The position numbers and the translations under genes were made by a program. A model generated the notes under the pieces. The model was not told where the DNA came from and did not search any database. It worked only from the letters and a program-made list of their open reading frames with translations. From Escherichia coli (GTDB taxonomy: Bacteria > Pseudomonadota > Gammaproteobacteria > Enterobacterales > Enterobacteriaceae): DNA of 64,000 nt. The stretch lies in assembly GCF_044324785.1 (NCBI RefSeq), contig NZ_CP172127.1; one strand, 5' to 3'. Positions 311-56,188 of this stretch are shown here, one piece after another; the stretch's first letter is position 1, and every line of letters begins with the position of its first letter.

Positions 311-1717
311 TCAGAAGATGGTGAATGGTGCGATTACCATAAATTTCACGTCACGCTCATCCTGGAAGATGTTGCCGTAACCGCCGCCCCAGCTTGGGAT
401 GTCGGAGTGGTTGTCGTATTCGGTGAAGTGCAGTTTGAACATCGTGCCTTTGGCGCGACCGTCCTGAATGGTGTACACCGCATCCAGGCTGTAGGCAGAC
501 TCTTCAATAGTCCGGTTTTTGTCGTAGTACGCATCCGGATTGCTCTGCCAGGTAGCGGGTTTAGCATCCCATGCGTAAACGTAGGAAGCGCCGATGGCGA
601 AGCCTGGAAGATTCCAGTTTTTCAGGTCATACATCGCACCGAAGAAGACCGCTTTTTCGCCGTTGGCGTTGAAGTCAGAACGGTTATCCCACCAGATATC
701 CAGGCGGCCGTTCGAGGAAGCGTAGGTTGGGGTCATACGTTGCAGGAAGTATCCCTGCTGACCGTCGGCTTTAACCCAGGTGCCTTCCAGACGCAAATCC
801 ACTACGTCAGCCGCCCGGTAACCAAAGGTCAACGCTTGCAGCCAGGCGGTGCCGTCGTAAAGATCGTTGACACTGCGATCGTCAACTTTATCGCGCGTAC
901 CGTAGAACTGATAGCTGGTGGTTAGCGGGCTACCGGCGATATCAAATTTGTAGCTGGCTTTGGCAAAATATTGATCGATATACCCTTCAGCCTGACCAAA
1001 TGCCGCTTCCAGTACGAAGTTATTTTTGAAGTCGTACTTCGCCCCGAGGGAGTGTAAATAGTCAACCTTGGTGGTTTTATCGTTCTGATAAAACTCATCC
1101 ATTTCCAGATGCCACGGTGCTTTGTATTCGTTGGTCCACATGTAGGAGAAACTCAACGCACCCGCATCGCCGTAATCAAAATTCGCCCCGGCTTCCGCAC
1201 CCTGATAAGTACCCGGCATAAAGCTCCAGTGCGGCGCTAACAGCGTCTGACCGGTTGGCTGAATATAACCTGCCCTCGCCCACACCGGACCGTATTTAAA
1301 TTTGGCCGCTGCTTTATACAGGCTTATACCGCTTTTATCGCCGGACCAGTCTTCGTCATAGGCTTTATTGCTTTTTGAAAACGCGATTTCGTTCGGGTGA
1401 GAGCTGTCACCGTTTTCCGCCATTTCAATCGCCGTAAACGCAGCAATATCAAGGCCGAACATATCAGCAGCATAACCGGACTGAAAATCGAGGTTGGCAT
1501 TCCAGGTGGAGTGAGAAAGGTTGGTTTTGTATTTGTCGCCGTCGGTAACATCTTTACGGTCGCGTTCACGCTGCCAGTAATAGATACCGCCGGTTAAGGT
1601 TGAATCGTCGATGAATCCTTCGGCGCGAGCCTCCGGCATTGCCATAAAGCCCGACATTGCTGTAACACCGGCGATAGCCAGCGCCAGCGTACTACGTTTG
1701 CCACTAAACGTACGCAT
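311..1717 (-). CDS. chiP: Chitoporin ChiP (YbfM), outer membrane porin for chito-oligosaccharides
   Basis: 468-aa ORF with signal peptide and C-terminal beta-barrel motif ending ...FTIF; length and sequence match E. coli ChiP. Confidence 0.93.
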
Positions 1718-1800
1718 GGGTTAATCCTCTTTGACGTATAAATTGCTGCACCAAAGGTGAACAGCGAAAAAAATAAAAATTAAAAAAGTAGCGTTGAGAA
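1718..1800 (-). promoter_or_regulatory. chiP 5' leader with Shine-Dalgarno (AGAGGA); expected target region of ChiX sRNA
   Basis: Position directly upstream of chiP start; ChiX regulation is established knowledge, exact pairing not verified here. Confidence 0.4.
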
Positions 1801-2157
1801 AAGTCTCGCTGACTACAGGAACAGACTATTTTTCGCGACGCGAATTATCAATCTCTTTCTGTAACCAGAATGTAAGAACATGAGCAACCGCACATATTTT
1901 GATGATTTTTGTTACAAGGCTTAAGTTGTAGTTGAAAGGTGTGTTGAAGAAAAAATGCGTGAATTTCCAGCAAGATGAAAGCGGTTACATTTTATTTAAT
2001 TATGATTTGTAATTTTAAATTTGCTTTATGAATAAATTACGAAGCAGAATTAATTCGCGAAGAAAAGCAGAAAAAAACGCCGCGGAGCGCGGCGTTTGGG
2101 ATTGTTTGCATATTTCTTGCCGGATTCGGCGTAAACGCTCTATCCGACAACGTAAAA

Positions 2158-3822
2158 TTACTCGCCTACTTTCGCCCAGGTATCACGCAGCCCAACGGTG
2201 CGGTTAAATACCGGTTTTTCCGCCGTAGAATGGCGGCTGTCGAGGCAGAAATAACCTTCACGCTCAAACTGGAATGCTTTACCCGCTACCGCGTCTTTCA
2301 GAGACGGTTCAGCAAAGCCCTGTTTGATCACCAGCGATTCCGGGTTAATCACCGACAGGAAATCATCCGCAGCACCTGGGTTCGGCACGCTGAACAGACG
2401 ATCGTACAGGCGGATTTCAACCGGCAGCGCATGTGCCGAGCTCACCCAGTGAATAACGCCTTTCACTTTACGACCATCTGCCGGATCTTTGCTTAAGGTG
2501 TCGGCGTCATAAGTACAGAAGATGGTGGTGATATTGCCTTCGGCATCTTTCTCCACGCGTTCTGCCTTAATGACGTAAGCATTACGCAGACGCACTTCTT
2601 TACCGAGCACCAGACGTTTGTACTGCTTGTTAGCTTCTTCGCGGAAATCGGCGCGATCGATCCAAATCTCACCGCTAAACGGCACCTGACGGCTACCCAT
2701 TTCCGGTTTGTTCGGATGGTTCGGCATGGTGACCATTTCGCCTTCGCCCTGATAGTTTTCGATAACCAGTTTCACCGGATCGATAACCGCCATTGCGCGC
2801 GGGGCATTTTCGTTGAGATCTTCACGGATGCAGGATTCCAGCGACGCCATCTCAATGGTGTTGTCCTGCTTGGTCACGCCGATGCGTTTGCAGAACTCAC
2901 GAATAGAAGCCGCAGTGTAACCTCGACGACGCAGACCGGAAATGGTCGGCATACGCGGGTCATCCCAGCCTTCAACGTGCTTGTCGGTCACCAGCAGGTT
3001 CAGCTTACGCTTGGACATCACGGTGTATTCCAGATTCAGGCGCGAGAATTCGTACTGGCGCGGGTGAACAGGAATGGTGATGTTGTCCAGCACCCAGTCG
3101 TACAGGCGACGGTTGTCCTGGAACTCAAGCGTACACAGAGAGTGCGTAATACCTTCCAGCGCATCGCTGATGCAATGGGTGAAGTCGTACATCGGGTAGA
3201 TGCACCACTTGTTGCCAGTCTGGTGGTGTTCAGCAAATTTAATGCGGTACAGCACCGGATCGCGCATTACGATAAATGGCGACGCCATGTCGATTTTCGC
3301 ACGAAGGCAGGCTTTACCTTCTTCAAAACCACCGGCACGCATTTTTTCGAACAGCGCCAGGTTCTCTTCAACGCTGCGGTCGCGGTACGGGCTGTTTTTA
3401 CCCGGTTGCGTCAGGGTACCGCGGTATTCGCGGATCTGTTCCGGCGTCAGTTCATCAACGTACGCCAGGCCTTTATTGATCAGTTCGATCGCATAGGCGT
3501 GGAGCTGATCAAAATAATCAGAGGAGTAACGGACGTTACCAGACCAGTGAAAACCTAACCACTCTACGTCGTTTTTGATCGAATCGACATACTCGATATC
3601 TTCTTTTACCGGGTTAGTGTCGTCGAAACGCAGGTTGCACTGGCCTTTATAGTCCTGGGCGATCCCGAAGTTCAGGCAGATAGATTTCGCATGGCCAATA
3701 TGCAGATAGCCATTCGGCTCCGGCGGGAAACGGGTGTGTACTGTGGTGTGCTTACCACTGGCCAGATCTTCATCGATGATCTGACGGATAAAGTTAGTCG
3801 GGCGGGCTTCTGCCTCACTCAT
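2158..3822 (-). CDS. glnS: Glutaminyl-tRNA synthetase
   Basis: 554-aa ORF; class I aaRS HIGH motif (YLHIGHAKS) and KMSKS-like VMSKR; matches E. coli GlnRS. Confidence 0.97.
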
Positions 3823-4024: not shown

Positions 4025-5971
4025 TTACTTTTTGATTTCATACAGCGGTGTTTGACCCGCCACAACATGGCCCTGAGCTTTAATGATCAAGCCACTGAAA
4101 TCGTCGATATTGCTGCAAACCACCGGGCTAATCATCGAGCGGGCGTTAGCGTTCAGGTAATCCAGATCCATTTCCAGAATCGGTTGTCCTGCGCTTACTT
4201 GCGCGCCCTCTTCCACCAGACGTTTAAAGCCTTTACCTTCCAGCGCTACGGTGTCGATACCCATATGGACGACGATCTCCGCGCCTTTTTCGGTTTCCAG
4301 ACAGAACGCGTGGTTGGTGTTGAAGATTTTCACGATTGTCCCTGCGGCTGGTGATACGACGATTTTATCTGTCGGTTTCACCGCCACACCGTCACCCACC
4401 GCTTTGCTGGCGAATGCTTCGTCAGGAACCTGATCCAGTGCCACAACATCACCGGTAATCGGCGATACCAGCTCCGCGATAGACACCGCGTTTGGTACAG
4501 CCTGCGGTTTTGCTACAGAAGCGGCAGTTGCCGGAGTTGCTTCAGCTGACGCAGCGGCTACCGGACCACGGGCAACAACTTTCTTCATTGCATCGCCAAT
4601 GGATTCCGCTTTCGCGCCAACAATCACCTGAATAGTCTGTTTGTTCAGTTTCACTACCCCAGAAGCACCCAGACGTTTACACATCGCATCGTTGACGCGA
4701 GCTGAGTCAACCACGGTCAGGCGCAGACGAGTAATACAGGCGTCAATTGCTTTCAGGTTGTCAGTACCGCCCACCGCAGCAATATAGTTGGTCGCCAGTT
4801 GAGTCAGACCTTCTTCCGTGTTGCTGTTGGCTTCTTCAGTAACGATCTCGTCTTCTTTATCTTCACGGCCCGGCGTTTTCAGGTTGAACATACGGATAAC
4901 CAAACTGAACACCACGAAGTAGATAGCGAAGAAGACAACACCCATCACCAGCAGCATCCAGACGTTCTGGCTGGCGGCCGGCAGGTTATACATCAACGCG
5001 TAGTCGATAGCCCCCGCAGAGAAGGAGAAGCCCGCGTGGATACCCAGCAGCGTTGCCACAAACAGGCTGATACCGGTCAGCAGTGCGTGCAGGAGGTACA
5101 GCAGCGGCGCAAGGAACATGAACAGGAATTCCAGCGGCTCAGTCACACCGGTCAGGAACGCAGTAACAGCAACAGAAAGCAGCATACCGCCAACCATCGG
5201 ACGACGCTCTTTCGGTGCTGCAAAGTACATCGCCAGCGCCGCACCCGGCAGACCGAACATCATGATCGGGAAGAAGCCGGACATGAACATCCCCGCGGTG
5301 CCGTCACCAGCGTAGAAACGGTTGATGTCGCCGTGGAAAACCGTACCCGCCGCGTTGGTGAATTCACCAATCTGGAACCAGGCGATGGTGTTCAGCACCT
5401 GATGCAGACCGGTTGGGATCAGCAGACGGTTGATGAAACCAAAGATACCGGAACCCAGCGCGCCCGCAGAAACGATCCACTCGCCGCCTGCATGGATAGC
5501 GTGCTGTACTGGCGGCCAGACGTAACCAAAAATGGCTGCCAGCACCAGGCAGAAGAAGCCGGTGGCAATCGGCACAAAGCGTTTGCCGCCGAAGAAACTC
5601 AGGAAGTCCGGCAGTTTAATATCGGACCAACGGTTATAGGCTGCACCACCGACCAGACCGGTAATGATACCCGCCAGTACACCCATGTTAATTTCCGGGT
5701 TGATGGTCACCATCGCTTTGGTTAACACAAAGTAACCTACCGCACCCGCCAGCGCCGCCGCACCTGCGCTGTCTTTCGACCAGCTGGATGCCACACCGAT
5801 GGCGAAGATTAATGCGAGGTTATCAAAAATCGCACCGCCCGCCTGGGCAATAAACGCAACGTTAAGTAAATCTGGCTGACCGAATCGCAGCAACAGCGCC
5901 GCCACAGGCAGCACCGCGATAGGGAGCTGTAACGCCCTACCGAGTCGCTGGAAAAAACCTAAAATATTCAT
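4025..5971 (-). CDS. nagE: PTS N-acetylglucosamine-specific EIICBA component
   Basis: 648-aa ORF, polytopic N-terminal domain plus C-terminal EIIB/EIIA; divergent from nagB as in the nag regulon. Confidence 0.96.
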   Translation of the reverse strand: MNILGFFQRLGRALQLPIAVLPVAALLLRFGQPDLLNVAFIAQAGGAIFDNLALIFAIGVASSWSKDSAGAAALAGAVGYFVLTKAMVTINPEINMGVLAGIITGLVGGAAYNRWSDIKLPDFLSFFGGKRFVPIATGFFCLVLAAIFGYVWPPVQHAIHAGGEWIVSAGALGSGIFGFINRLLIPTGLHQVLNTIAWFQIGEFTNAAGTVFHGDINRFYAGDGTAGMFMSGFFPIMMFGLPGAALAMYFAAPKERRPMVGGMLLSVAVTAFLTGVTEPLEFLFMFLAPLLYLLHALLTGISLFVATLLGIHAGFSFSAGAIDYALMYNLPAASQNVWMLLVMGVVFFAIYFVVFSLVIRMFNLKTPGREDKEDEIVTEEANSNTEEGLTQLATNYIAAVGGTDNLKAIDACITRLRLTVVDSARVNDAMCKRLGASGVVKLNKQTIQVIVGAKAESIGDAMKKVVARGPVAAASAEATPATAASVAKPQAVPNAVSIAELVSPITGDVVALDQVPDEAFASKAVGDGVAVKPTDKIVVSPAAGTIVKIFNTNHAFCLETEKGAEIVVHMGIDTVALEGKGFKRLVEEGAQVSAGQPILEMDLDYLNANARSMISPVVCSNIDDFSGLIIKAQGHVVAGQTPLYEIKK

Positions 5972-6094: not shown

Positions 6095-6117
6095 TTTAAT
6101 TCGTATCGCAAATTAAA
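6095..6117. promoter_or_regulatory. NagC operator (nagE-proximal), 23-bp palindrome TTTAATTCGTATCGCAAATTAAA
   Basis: Near-perfect inverted repeat TTTAATT...AATTAAA in nagE-nagB divergent region; matches known NagC operator architecture. Confidence 0.65.
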
Positions 6118-6187: not shown

Positions 6188-6214
6188 ACTTATTTTATCA
6201 TTCAAAAAATCAGG
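6188..6214. promoter_or_regulatory. Putative nagB-proximal NagC operator
   Basis: AT-rich imperfect palindrome CTTATTTTATCATTCAAAAAATCAGG about 100 bp upstream of nagB; placement fits the two-operator loop model. Confidence 0.4.
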
Positions 6215-12641: not shown

Positions 12642-12718
12642 GGCTACGTAGCTCAGTTGGTTAGAGCACATCACTCATAATGATGGGGTCACAGGTTCGA
12701 ATCCCGTCGTAGCCACCA
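12642..12718 (+). tRNA. metT: tRNA-Met (elongator, anticodon CAT)
   Basis: 77 nt GGCTACGTAGCTCAGTTGGTTAGAGCACATCACTCATAATGATGG...CGTAGCCACCA; cloverleaf with CAT anticodon and encoded CCA. Confidence 0.95.
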
Positions 12719-12726
12719 TCTTTTTT

Positions 12727-12811
12727 GCGGGAGTGGCGAAATTGGTAGACGCACCAGATTTAGGTTCTGGCGCCGCAAGGTGTGCGAGTTCAAGTCTCGC
12801 CTCCCGCACCA
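12727..12811 (+). tRNA. leuW: tRNA-Leu (anticodon TAG), long variable arm
   Basis: 85 nt GCGGGAGTGGCGAAATTGGTAGACGCACCAGATTTAGGTTCTGG...CTCCCGCACCA. Confidence 0.95.
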
Positions 12812-12834
12812 TTCACCAGAAAGCGTTGTACGGA

Positions 12835-12909
12835 TGGGGTATCGCCAAGCGGTAAGGCACCGGTTTTTGATACCGGCATTCCCTGGTTCGAATCCAGGTA
12901 CCCCAGCCA
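12835..12909 (+). tRNA. glnU: tRNA-Gln (anticodon TTG)
   Basis: 75 nt TGGGGTATCGCCAAGCGGTAAGGCACCGGTTTTTGATACCGG...CCCCAGCCA; paralog name (glnU vs glnW) ambiguous. Confidence 0.95.
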
Positions 12910-12924
12910 TCGAAGAAACAATCT

Positions 12925-13001
12925 GGCTACGTAGCTCAGTTGGTTAGAGCACATCACTCATAATGATGGGGTCACAGGTTCGAATCCCGTCGTAGCCACC
13001 A
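12925..13001 (+). tRNA. metU: tRNA-Met (elongator, anticodon CAT), identical second copy
   Basis: 77 nt identical to the copy at 12642-12718. Confidence 0.95.
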
Positions 13002-13049
13002 AATTCTGAATGTGTCGAATAAGTTCGGCAAATTCACAAACCAATTTGT

Positions 13050-13124
13050 TGGGGTATCGCCAAGCGGTAAGGCACCGGATTCTGATTCCGGCATTCCGAG
13101 GTTCGAATCCTCGTACCCCAGCCA
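13050..13124 (+). tRNA. glnV: tRNA-Gln (anticodon CTG)
   Basis: 75 nt TGGGGTATCGCCAAGCGGTAAGGCACCGGATTCTGATTCCGG...CCCCAGCCA; paralog name (glnV vs glnX) ambiguous. Confidence 0.95.
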
Positions 13125-20607: not shown

Positions 20608-21516
20608 ATGCAATTACGTAAACCTGCCACAGCAATCCTGGCCCTGGCGCTTTCCGCAGGACTGGCACAGGCAGATGACGCCGCCCCGGCAGCGGGCAGT
20701 ACTCTGGACAAAATCGCCAAAAACGGTGTGATTGTCGTCGGTCACCGTGAATCTTCAGTGCCTTTCTCTTATTACGACAATCAGCAAAAAGTGGTGGGTT
20801 ACTCGCAGGATTACTCCAACGCCATTGTTGAAGCAGTGAAAAAGAAACTCAACAAACCGGACTTGCAGGTAAAACTGATTCCGATTACCTCACAAAACCG
20901 TATTCCGCTGCTGCAAAACGGCACTTTTGATTTTGAATGTGGCTCTACCACCAACAACGTCGAACGCCAAAAACAGGCGGCTTTCTCTGACACTATTTTC
21001 GTGGTCGGTACGCGCCTGCTGACCAAAAAGGGCGGCGATATCAAAGATTTTGCCGACCTGAAAGGCAAAGCCGTAGTCGTCACTTCCGGCACTACCTCTG
21101 AAGTTTTGCTCAACAAATTGAATGAAGAGCAAAAAATGAATATGCGCATCATCAGCGCCAAAGATCACGGTGACTCTTTCCGCACCCTGGAAAGCGGTCG
21201 TGCTGTTGCCTTTATGATGGATGACGCTCTGCTGGCCGGTGAACGTGCGAAAGCGAAGAAACCAGACAACTGGGATATCGTCGGCAAGCCGCAGTCTCAG
21301 GAAGCCTACGGTTGCATGTTGCGTAAAGATGATCCGCAGTTCAAAAAGCTGATGGATGACACCATCGCGCAGGTGCAGACCTCCGGTGAAGCGGAAAAAT
21401 GGTTTGATAAGTGGTTTAAAAATCCCATTCCGCCGAAAAACCTGAACATGAATTTCGAGCTGTCAGACGAAATGAAAGCACTGTTCAAAGAACCGAATGA
21501 TAAGGCACTGAACTAA
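20608..21516 (+). CDS. gltI: Glutamate/aspartate periplasmic binding protein
   Basis: 302 aa from MQLRKPATAILALALSAGLAQA (signal peptide); track ORF extends 25 codons upstream. Confidence 0.93.
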   Translation: MQLRKPATAILALALSAGLAQADDAAPAAGSTLDKIAKNGVIVVGHRESSVPFSYYDNQQKVVGYSQDYSNAIVEAVKKKLNKPDLQVKLIPITSQNRIPLLQNGTFDFECGSTTNNVERQKQAAFSDTIFVVGTRLLTKKGGDIKDFADLKGKAVVVTSGTTSEVLLNKLNEEQKMNMRIISAKDHGDSFRTLESGRAVAFMMDDALLAGERAKAKKPDNWDIVGKPQSQEAYGCMLRKDDPQFKKLMDDTIAQVQTSGEAEKWFDKWFKNPIPPKNLNMNFELSDEMKALFKEPNDKALN

Positions 21517-21674
21517 TTACAAGAACCAGGGGCGGAAATTCCAGCCCTCTCGATTGTTACGTAGCACGGACAGACTATACGCCTGATGGTCGTTCCCCAT
21601 CGGGCCTGAAAACCGCAATACGCTGGGTAACAATCTTCGAGGGTAGCAGTTAACGCTGCTACCCTCTTTTTTCT
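21512..21674 (+). ncRNA. sroC: SroC sRNA region (processed from the gltI 3' end/gltI-gltJ spacer) including intrinsic terminator
   Basis: Conserved spacer ending in GAGGGTAGCAG-TTAAC-GCTGCTACCCTC+TTTTTT hairpin at 21640-21674; location matches the known SroC locus. Confidence 0.6.
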
Positions 21675-50813: not shown

Positions 50814-50844
50814 CAAAAAAACCCGCTGATTAAGCGGGTTTTGA
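50814..50844. terminator. Bidirectional terminator between crcB and cspE
   Basis: AAAAAAACCCGCT-GATTA-AGCGGGTTTTG. Confidence 0.8.
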
Positions 50845-50861
50845 ATTCTTGCTGACGTATC

Positions 50862-51071
50862 TTACAGAGCGATTACGTTTGCAGCAGAAGGGCCTTTGGC
50901 ACCGTTAGTGATTTCGAACTCTACGCGCTGACCTTCAGCAAGAGTTTTAAAACCATTAGTCTGGATTGCAGAGAAGTGTACGAACACGTCTTTGCTGCCG
51001 TCTTCCGGAGTAATGAAACCGAATCCTTTGGACTCATTAAACCACTTAACGTTACCTTTAATCTTAGACAT
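50862..51071 (-). CDS. cspE: Cold-shock-like protein CspE
   Basis: 69 aa [20 protein letters not shown]... (RNP1 motif); track ORF extends upstream to an alternative start. Confidence 0.95.
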
Positions 51072-51245
51072 CAAAATTACCTTTACATGAAAAATAGACA
51101 CAAATGCTGTGTCGGTTACCAGTACACCAATTGTGGTACGCTTTGTCCAGTGCAACTTTACTAAAAAGTGATAAAAGTCGCGTTATTTTTGATGTTACTT
51201 ATTTTAGTTATTGATTTTAAAGAAGTTACTAAAACTTCATTTGTC

Positions 51246-51806
51246 TCAAAACTGAAAGCGCATCCAGGCAAAGTACACATTGCCATTGTTGTAGGTACCC
51301 GGAATGTAGGTCATCTGAAAAGTCACTGGACCATAACCCACAGAGGCCAATGGCAGTAGAACCGGGAGAGGGATGTAATTCCAGTTATCGCGTGCCGTTA
51401 CGCCAGCGGTGAATCCCAGACCTAAATGAAAATTTTCATCCGCCAGCGGTCGCCAGGTACTTTCCCATCCGTATCCGGCAATCGGTTCCCATTTGTTCCA
51501 CGAGTCCTTAAATGCCATGGCATACAGGCCATGCCAGTTTCCTTTTTCATCCCAACGCGACAGGCCAAAACCGCCACCCCACGGTCGCTCGTTATAGCGA
51601 TCGGTTTTTTCTTTGTCGTAAGCGAAACGTGCATGCCAGGTGATGGCAGGAATATATAAATCATAATGTTCAGGCTGTTGCCAGGTTTGTGCAATATTTT
51701 CTCTAAACGTTGTCATCCACTCATCTGCGTTAGCAAAAACTTTACCAACGCTGATTAACTGAATAAAAACAAAGGAAAAGATAGCGACATATTTACTCAC
51801 GTTCAT
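51246..51806 (-). CDS. pagP: Lipid A palmitoyltransferase PagP (CrcA)
   Basis: 186 aa from [25 protein letters not shown] (signal peptide); outer-membrane beta-barrel ending ...RFQF. Confidence 0.93.
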
Positions 51807-54501: not shown

Positions 54502-56128
54502 TAGGTTTCACTTTCGGAATATAGATTGAAAATAAGGTACCGCAGGGATCATTATCTTCGAGAGTGATAACACCACCGCAGCGCGTTACGTAGCTGGCAA
54601 TCAAGTACAACCCAATGCCATGTTCGCCGGGCTCGTCAGCACGCGTACTGACACCCTGCTCAAATATTTTGTCTCGTAGAGACTCTGGAACGCCGCAGCC
54701 CTGATCGGCGACTTCAATCACCACATCATCGCCTTCATCGCTGAGGAATAATTCAACGATCTTGTTTCCTTCATCGCTACGTAGGCTGGCTTCGAAGGCG
54801 TTATCAAGTAAATTGCCAACAATGGCTGCAAACTCGGTGCTGTCCAGTCCTGGCGGCAGTTGCGAAAGCTGACTTCCGGGGACGATGACCATTTTTAGCC
54901 CCAGTTCGCGGGCGCGCTGCACTTTACCAAAAAGCAGCCCCGCCACCTGGCGATCGGCAAACGCCTCGCGCAGGCTATCAATAAGCTGTTGCTGGGCCTG
55001 AGACTCCCCCTGCACCATCGCCAACACGCGATCATACTCTTTCATCTGCAACAGACCATTGAGCGTCGACATCCAATTGAGATGCTCGTGTCGCAATGTG
55101 CGCAGGCTCTCGACGTATTGTTTAATTTGCGTCAGTTGCGCATTGAGGGTGGATATTTCGTCTTTACTACGAAAGCTGATAATGGCCCCCAGCAAATCAT
55201 CACCTGAACGAATAGCTTCCCGGTTGGCAATAACGCTCAGACCGTTAAAGTTCGCCACCACATCCTGACGTTTTTCATCAATCTGTTCGGTAAAGAAATC
55301 GGCGGGCCTGACCACTTCAGCAATGGGTTTACCCAACCATTGCCGTCCGGGGGAACTCAGACCCAGCATCTTTCTTGCGTTACGATTGATGGCGGTAATG
55401 TAACCATGCGGATCCACCGCAATGAGCCCTTCATAAACCGAACTAAACAGCGCCTCTTGCTGACGGACCACGCGTGCGATTTGCTTTGGCTCCATGCCCA
55501 TCATCTGCCGACGGATATGCGCGGCCAGGAACCACGATAGCAACATCAGAATCCCTAACAGCACGACAAACACGCCAGCCATCGGTAATAAAAACTCAGC
55601 CCGCCAGCTATCAATTTTACTCACCAGGTAGCCAATCGACACCACGCCGATGACTTTTCCATCGTCATCAAAGATTGGCGTTTTGGCACGCATCGCCATG
55701 CCAATTGACCCTTTCCCGGTGATGAAGTAGCTCTCTCCTTTCTCCAGCGCGCCCGGTTTGGTGAACTGCATAGGATAACCAATTTTCTCCGGATTAGGAT
55801 GGTAAAGACGAATCGAGTGCCGATCGCCAATCACCACATAATCAAAATCGGTATCTCTTTGTAATTTGTTAGCGATGGTCGCCAGCCTCTTGTAGTCACG
55901 CGTTTTCACTGCGCTGATGATACTGTCATTAGAAGCAATAATTTTTGCCTGATTCATTGCCATGTCGCGCACATGAAGCGTTAAATAGTCCTCAAAACTG
56001 GCCGTAAAATATTGCGCCAGGGCTGCAATGACAAATATTGAGAACACCAGAATCAGCAAAAAGATACGCAGCGGAAATGCCAGTCTTTGGAAAAATGCAA
56101 ACTGTTTATTCTCGTTAAGCTGCAACAT
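54470..56128 (-). CDS. dpiB: Sensor histidine kinase DpiB (CitA)
   Basis: 552 aa from MLQLNENKQF; two TM segments, periplasmic domain, PAS, H-box and ATPase domain; 32-nt overlap with dpiA. Confidence 0.93.
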   Translation of the reverse strand: MLQLNENKQFAFFQRLAFPLRIFLLILVFSIFVIAALAQYFTASFEDYLTLHVRDMAMNQAKIIASNDSIISAVKTRDYKRLATIANKLQRDTDFDYVVIGDRHSIRLYHPNPEKIGYPMQFTKPGALEKGESYFITGKGSIGMAMRAKTPIFDDDGKVIGVVSIGYLVSKIDSWRAEFLLPMAGVFVVLLGILMLLSWFLAAHIRRQMMGMEPKQIARVVRQQEALFSSVYEGLIAVDPHGYITAINRNARKMLGLSSPGRQWLGKPIAEVVRPADFFTEQIDEKRQDVVANFNGLSVIANREAIRSGDDLLGAIISFRSKDEISTLNAQLTQIKQYVESLRTLRHEHLNWMSTLNGLLQMKEYDRVLAMVQGESQAQQQLIDSLREAFADRQVAGLLFGKVQRARELGLKMVIVPGSQLSQLPPGLDSTEFAAIVGNLLDNAFEASLRSDEGNKIVELFLSDEGDDVVIEVADQGCGVPESLRDKIFEQGVSTRADEPGEHGIGLYLIASYVTRCGGVITLEDNDPCGTLFSIYIPKVKPNDSSINPIDR

Positions 56129-56188
56129 TGTTTTCCTTGCGGGTTGTCCCGAGCCTCTTTGACGAATGTAATTAAAATGTTGAATCAA

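Follow-up and report, generated by a model that had tools for sequence, protein, structure and literature searches.

How is chiP of Escherichia coli switched on and off, and how much of the DNA that separates it from glnS is needed for the switch? In the original prediction, made for a window of 64,000 nt (the whole stretch of DNA that was analyzed), positions 1718-2157 had been regarded as a long upstream or leader region of chiP, a gene silenced by the small RNA ChiX and regulated by NagC. The analysis described here indicates that the region is the known two-layer switch of the chitoporin gene, with NagC acting at the promoter and ChiX on the leader, a reading to which we would assign a probability of roughly 0.93. 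The circuit formed by chiP, ChiX, the chb decoy, ChiZ and NagC is already known and appears to be carried unchanged in this genome.

The ORF coordinates place exactly 440 bp between glnS and chiP (1718..2157), in agreement with the predicted length. The start of chiQ also lies in the window, on the minus strand, so that the order is glnS-chiP-chiQ, and the orientation of the window is opposite to that of the K-12 map. The predicted AT-richness was borne out, with a G+C content of 36.6% in the gap versus 50.6% in the whole window, and so was the SD motif: on the minus strand the gap ends with CGTCAAAGAGGATTAACCC, directly followed by the ATG, with AGAGGA at 1730..1725 and a 7-nt spacer, TTAACCC (1724..1718). 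Neither the length nor the AT-richness needs a special explanation, both being ordinary for such a region.

By alignment, window positions 1718-2157 are the orthologue of the glnS-chiP intergenic region of K-12, where the gene order is also glnS-chiP-chiQ, and the promoter, the NagC operator, the hairpins, the ChiX site, the SD motif and the start codon (Table 1) are all identical in the two genomes. The comparison with the K-12 leader that had been proposed as a check revealed identity apart from one extra T (U in the RNA), and the same holds for the chiP-proximal 240 bp as a whole, in which the additional T lies in a T-run; scattered substitutions occur between -150 and -330. The K-12 gap is longer (576 bp versus 440 bp) because it contains about 137 bp more of REP/BIME sequence after glnS. 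The region is typical of the species: a 701-bp stretch around the gap was matched in 5424 of 5426 complete E. coli genomes, with flanks annotated as glnS and chiP, and the closest of the 5426 genomes is about 98.1-98.6% identical to the window, which therefore stems from an E. coli-like lineage that is missing from this set. The nucleotide identity of the window is 96.5% with K-12 (over about 5 kb), 97.3% with strain 2016C-3878 and 93% with Escherichia whittamii. An affinity to E. whittamii was considered, as a ChiP segment is 100% identical, but it was rejected on the lower nucleotide identity.

Table 1. Features of the glnS-chiP region and neighboring genes, in coordinates of the 64,000-nt window
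Feature	Position	Strand	Basis and remarks
chiP	311..1717	-	ORF listing and sequence; 468 aa, signal peptide
chiP start codon ATG	1715..1717	-	first base A (window 1717) is the counterpart of the mapped K-12 ChiZ 3' end
ChiX pairing site CGUCAAAGAGGA (-19..-8), includes SD AGAGGA 1730..1725	1725..1736	-	exact-match search, duplex energy
chiP 5' UTR, equivalent of K-12 ncRNA chiZ (b4808)	1718..1816	-	K-12 annotation, alignment
Leader hairpin 2 (leader nt 52-72)	1745..1765	-	MFE fold, covariation
UA-rich linker CUUUUUUAAUUUUUAUUUUUU(U), probable Hfq rim-binding stretch	1767..1787	-	sequence; holds the one-U difference from K-12
Leader hairpin 1 (leader nt 1-29)	1788..1816	-	MFE fold, covariation
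chiP -10 hexamer TAGTCT, 17-bp spacer	1823..1828	-	position relative to K-12 chiZ/chiP 5' end; invariant across genera
Proximal NagC operator GATAATTCGCGTCGCGAAAAATA, -33 to -11, overlaps both hexamers	1827..1849	-	published site, PWM
chiP -35 hexamer TTGATA	1846..1851	-	position relative to K-12 chiZ/chiP 5' end; invariant across genera
CRP-like box TGTGCGGTTGCTCATG, centered at -70.5 from start	1879..1894	-	fixed-distance conservation; putative CRP assignment
TGTAACAAAAATCATC box, centered at -92.5	1901..1916	-	TGTWACA in 55/73 distinct sequences
TGTAACCGCTTTCATC box, CRP-like or LacI-family-like, centered at -165.5	1974..1989	-	mismatch scan, cross-genus alignment
Probable distal NagC operator TCTGCTTTTCTTCGCGAATTAAT	2049..2071	-	PWM, cross-genus conservation; putative assignment
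glnS intrinsic terminator	2065..2097	-	terminator scan and inverted repeat; conserved in K-12
Degenerate single REP, glnS 3' UTR	2118..2150	+	K-12 alignment; sub-threshold Rfam naRNA4 match
glnS	2158..3822	-	ORF listing and sequence
nagE	4025..5971	-	ORF listing and sequence

The notion of a 440-bp leader had to be revised. Homology to the K-12 start retains as leader only the last 99 nt or so, predicted to begin at 1816 and to make up only about a quarter of the gap, and the remaining 340 bp or so are promoter and operator DNA together with the 3' end of glnS. The 99-nt leader is colinear with the 98-nt chiZ of K-12 (b4808, annotated at 708236..708333, directly 5' of chiP), the single 1-nt insertion being an extra U within the UA-rich linker. 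ChiZ, the name given to this leader in K-12, was absent from the original prediction.

ChiX, which has also been named MicM, SroB and RybC, comprises 84 nt in K-12, and its seed is largely unpaired in the predicted fold. Nucleotides 45-56 (UCCUCUUUGACG) are a perfect complement (12/12) of CGUCAAAGAGGA at 1736..1725, on the SD motif of chiP. When 25-nt tiles across the gap and 60 nt of coding sequence were scanned against ChiX nt 24-60, this was the best site, with a calculated duplex energy of -21.0 kcal/mol, compared with -12.2 kcal/mol for the next best site; dinucleotide shuffles of 500 nt gave -14.0 +/- 2.1 kcal/mol, and 3 of 400 reached the observed value. The cost of opening the site would be small, 1.6-2.5 kcal/mol for the leader and 0.9 kcal/mol for ChiX. 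A more impressive value of -45.5 kcal/mol, obtained with RNAduplex for full-length ChiX and a 159-nt leader, was discarded as an artefact of huge interior loops. The ChiX pairing site expected in the leader is thus borne out by an uninterrupted complement over the SD motif, and a lack of complementarity was not seen.

It could be argued that a strong SD motif produces this complementarity by chance, and that the leader is not controlled by ChiX in this lineage, for example after a loss of chiX. The CCUCU core of ChiX resembles the anti-SD sequence of 16S rRNA, the SD motif supplies 6 of the 12 paired bases, and 12-mer matches to any part of ChiX were found four times in the 64 kb, where about 0.6 would be expected. 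Three of these four are A/T runs that pair with the A-rich linker of ChiX; for the seed 12-mer alone, chance would give about 0.008 occurrences in the window, and its match coincides with the chiP SD motif. A 12-mer match as such is not rare in 64 kb, and therefore the case rests on the position, the specificity for the seed and the conservation. Six of the paired nucleotides (CGUCAA) lie outside the SD motif, and this part has kept both its sequence and its offset in about 25 genera. The chiX gene itself lies outside the window (no match to the sroB/ChiX family of Rfam was found within the 64 kb, and the K-12 copy is about 200 kb away), and its presence and its seed in this genome are therefore inferred from its occurrence in 5422 of 5426 E. 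coli genomes, a distribution that argues against a loss. In addition, the site equals that of K-12 base for base, and for K-12 a support of the pairing by compensatory mutations is among the results cited in Adams et al. 2021, as is the ChiX- and Hfq-dependent repression of chiP in K-12 and Salmonella.

The conservation was evaluated with 80 species-level chiP loci from Escherichia, Salmonella, Citrobacter, Klebsiella, Raoultella, Enterobacter, Kluyvera, Kosakonia, Buttiauxella, Leclercia and other genera. No block of the leader is better conserved than GTCAAAGAGGA: its distance from the ATG is constant in 68 of the 80 loci, and 74 of the 80 deviate by at most 1 nt. The exceptions are sites in Kosakonia, which read GUCCAGAAGGA or GUCUAGAAGGA (loci L047, L053, L058, L059 and L068, at about 1480-1492, and L051), plus one Leclercia MAG, which indicates that the site can drift. 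As judged from the sequences, the Kosakonia sites would mispair with a ChiX of the E. coli type. If ChiX of Kosakonia has the seed UCCUUCUGGAC, this would be natural compensatory evidence, while a seed of the E. coli type would mean a weakened control in this genus. Taking both sides together, an accidental complementarity appears very improbable, and ChiX pairing at the SD motif is retained as the explanation.

The chiP leader of Salmonella enterica, a ChiX target with Rho-dependent polarity on chiQ, has the same architecture and an identical ACGUCAAAGAGGAUUAAC. Its NagC operator differs in one base (locus L013), its hairpins have a different sequence as a result of compensatory changes, and the distal operator region and the upstream spacer have diverged. 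A different kind of variation was observed in five Citrobacter loci and one MAG labelled Raoultella (L014, L021, L022, L023, L025 and L026), which contain an ERIC-like insert of about 125 nt between hairpin 2 and the ChiX site (e.g. at about 1355-1476 in L023). The insert is flanked by repeated TTATAC and doubles the length of the 5' UTR, with the ChiX site and the SD motif left intact.

The leader consists, from its 5' end, of hairpin 1, the UA-rich linker, hairpin 2, an 8-nt spacer, the ChiX site with the SD motif, the 7-nt spacer and the AUG. In the MFE fold, stem-loops occupy the 5' part and the ChiX site is exposed. RNAalifold did not detect a consensus structure in a MAFFT alignment of 58 leaders, because the hairpins are misaligned in an alignment based on sequence only. 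A covariance model was built from 16 close relatives and the remaining leaders were re-aligned to it, yielding 57 leaders; the leader of the window, which was part of the seed alignment, scores 112 bits. In this alignment, which was fitted to the model structure so that the pair counts are biased upward, 54 distinct leaders show 86-94% pairing in hairpin 1 (helices 1-2), with double changes at 9/9 pairs, and 92-97% pairing in hairpin 2 (helices 3-4), with double changes at 6/7 pairs. For both hairpins together, 92.1% of the cells are paired, compared with 28-77% when the partners are slid, 15 of 16 pairs have changed on both sides, and none of 500 shuffles reached the observed values.

Two covarying hairpins might indicate that the leader functions mainly in cis, as an attenuator or riboswitch in which a ligand or protein triggers termination at hairpin 2 and a U-rich tract, independent of ChiX. 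In leaders of the Enterobacter type, hairpin 2 is indeed followed by UUUUAAUU, and K-12 accumulates a short transcript of about the size of the leader. The origin of that transcript points in another direction. ChiZ has been described as an Hfq-dependent chiP 5' UTR fragment of about 90 nt that contains the ChiX pairing site, is made with the involvement of Rho, and sponges ChiX (Adams et al. 2021). Its 3' end in K-12, mapped by Term-seq to 708334 (the A of the chiP ATG; Adams et al. 2021), is 27 nt past hairpin 2 and is ascribed to Rho; in the window, the 61 nt around this position are the same. The scan for terminators detected none at hairpin 2 of the window, conservation in the leader peaks at the unpaired ChiX site and not at a ligand pocket, and the Rfam covariance models yielded nothing at or above the gathering score between positions 1500 and 2400 and nothing relevant even at E<=10. 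Attenuation is thus an exceedingly improbable main function of this leader. In Salmonella, an Hfq CLIP peak with crosslinks lies in a UA-rich sequence of the chiP 5' UTR and fits the model of a class-II sRNA for ChiX (PMC5207318); this signal presumably corresponds to the linker at 1767..1787.

The first layer of the switch is located upstream of the leader. A generic sigma-70 scan misses the chiP promoter because TAGTCT fits only three of six -10 positions, and its sole match, at 2018..1989, is no more than what is expected by chance. The proximal operator is letter for letter the site called 'ybfM proximal' in the NagC list of FITBAR (Table 1 in PMC3098098), ybfM being another name of chiP. 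When scored with a PWM derived from the nine remaining published sites, 'ybfM proximal' being left out, it reaches 22.0 bits and ranks first among about 64,000 window positions, followed by the window's own operators of nagE (21.9 bits) and nagB (17.7 bits). These two sites are situated at 6095-6117 and 6189-6211, in the divergent nagE-nagB region. NagC operators are 23-bp quasi-palindromes with an invariant TT at -6,-5 and AA at +5,+6 (PMC4288165), and the chiP operator follows this rule (GATAA-TT-CGCGTCGCG-AA-AAATA, 1849..1827). Its positions -11 and +11 are G and A, respectively; the high-affinity class has C or G at +/-11, and palindromy is not required there (PMC4288165). The operator is nearly invariant in 79 of the 80 loci. 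A review states that NagC represses chiP (PMC4098024), and the presence of the exact published operator on the promoter supports the predicted NagC control in this genome as well.

The label 'proximal' in the published list implies a distal partner. The probable distal operator is the site at 2071..2049, 222 bp upstream when measured from center to center. It keeps the TT and AA at +/-5,6 and has T/T at +/-11, which is the low-affinity type. Its PWM score is 8.8 bits here and 13-18 bits at the orthologous position in many genera, with some at about 9-12 bits. Of 79 loci, 45 have retained the right half, CGCGAATTAAT, at a distance of 162-245 bp upstream (200-245 bp in 43 of them), and the left half has been eroded in Escherichia by the T-tail of the glnS terminator. 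Two competing candidates, at 2015-2037 (14.5 bits) and 2001-2023 (12.2 bits), were also found; the former has the best second score when only the window is considered, but it is not at the position conserved across genera and was rejected.

By analogy, NagC may form a loop between the two operators. The operator pairs of nagE-nagB and chbB, which act in repression by DNA looping, consist of the same 23-bp quasi-palindromes with TT and AA at +/-5,6, and they combine a strong operator at the promoter with a weaker one upstream, as does the candidate pair at chiP. Furthermore, 'chbB distal' shares TCTTCGCGAATTA with the distal candidate. The spacing of about 222 bp at chiP is unlike that of the nagE-nagB and chbB pairs.

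Between the two operators, a TGTGC-N6-TCAT motif was found at a fixed distance in all 73 distinct promoter sequences (73/73). In its longer form, TGTGC-N6-TCATG, it matches 7 of 10 positions of the CRP consensus TGTGA-N6-TCACA, and ybfM is among the CRP targets detected by genomic SELEX (PMC3105977). The box centered at -70.5 is probably a CRP site and resembles those of class I, which are located near -61.5, -71.5 or a comparable position. It is conserved as strongly as the NagC operator, and in sequence terms the ChiX site, the NagC operator and the CRP-like box are all conserved in about 80 enterobacterial species. The boxes at -92.5 and -165.5, the latter reading TGTAAC-CG-CTTTCA, are partly conserved. 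A more ambitious interpretation would view the upstream 230 bp as a nucleoprotein scaffold, with a distal NagC operator that abuts the terminator and a loop of about 222 bp that encloses three CRP- or LacI-like boxes; parts of it, such as the box at -165.5, may bind a regulator new to chiP, and the leader would represent an RNA family without an Rfam entry, present in about 25 genera. As a whole, this proposal is rather unlikely.

The glnS-proximal end of the gap is accounted for by the 3' end of that gene. The glnS terminator has a 10-bp stem (2097..2075) with a 3-nt loop and a T-rich tail. A match to the REP-derived naRNA4 family at 2073-2149 has 25.4 bits, far below the gathering threshold of 59.5, and the segment 2118..2150 is presumably similar to the REP consensus. 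One might ask whether the AT-rich part from 1852 to 2067 is an independent gene for a small protein or an sRNA instead of regulatory DNA. A mechanical search lists ORFs of 41 aa (1848..1973, minus strand), 59 aa (2028..2207, plus strand) and 37 aa (2037..2150, minus strand) in or near it, and it contains the promoter-like match mentioned above. The 41-aa ORF starts at a TTG, is frameshifted with respect to K-12 by a 1-nt indel and is annotated neither in K-12 nor in the nearest strain, and the number of promoter-like matches in the gap equals the expectation from shuffles. The conservation of this part across genera is limited to short palindromic boxes, which are typical of protein-binding DNA, and Rfam matches are missing. 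The mechanical ORFs of the gap are not credible genes, the probability of a hidden gene is close to nil, and the AT-rich part is best regarded as regulatory DNA.

How chiP would be regulated in this strain is taken from the literature, and what is contributed here are the elements, their identity with those of K-12, the energetics and the conservation. Transcription would start around 1816 from a sigma-70 promoter (TTGATA-17-TAGTCT) that NagC occludes by binding to 1849..1827, probably assisted by looping to the weaker operator at 2071..2049, with the conserved CRP-like site at -70.5 lying between the two operators; GlcNAc-6-P would release NagC. In the transcript, the two hairpins would flank the UA-rich Hfq-binding stretch and leave CGUCAAAGAGGA single-stranded, so that the constitutive, Hfq-dependent ChiX could pair with the 12 nt, cover the SD motif and block translation. 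The block would expose the early coding region of chiP to Rho-dependent termination, silencing chiQ as well. Chitosugars would relieve this second layer by inducing the chb operon, the mRNA of which titrates and destroys ChiX, and ChiZ, the short transcript of the leader with its 3' end at the ATG, would be a second ChiX sponge.

As a discovery, this carries little weight, since the circuit is a textbook example of sRNA silencing combined with target mimicry. The value lies in the annotation: every element is placed at base resolution in an Escherichia lineage other than K-12, the '440-bp leader' is resolved into a 99-nt leader and promoter, operator and terminator DNA, and the conservation of the ChiX site, the NagC operator and one CRP-like box is documented across Enterobacteriaceae. 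The covariance model could seed an Rfam entry for ChiZ or the chiP leader.

Two further observations concern other parts of the window. A second complement of the ChiX seed, CGUCAAAGAGG, comprises 11 nt at 56164..56154 on the minus strand, about 27 nt upstream of the ATG of dpiB (citA) at 56127. The same seed is involved in both cases; the match is clear of the SD motif at dpiB, in contrast to the 12 nt that overlap it at chiP. A regulation of DpiA/DpiB by RybC is reported in the cited literature, which makes it the other ChiX target reported in E. coli, and therefore the window would hold two ChiX targets. Matches to Rfam families at gathering level were present elsewhere, at 12642-13121, 21512-21674 and 50814-51256, and represent a cluster of five tRNAs, sroC, and a leader of the cspA thermoregulator family on the minus strand.
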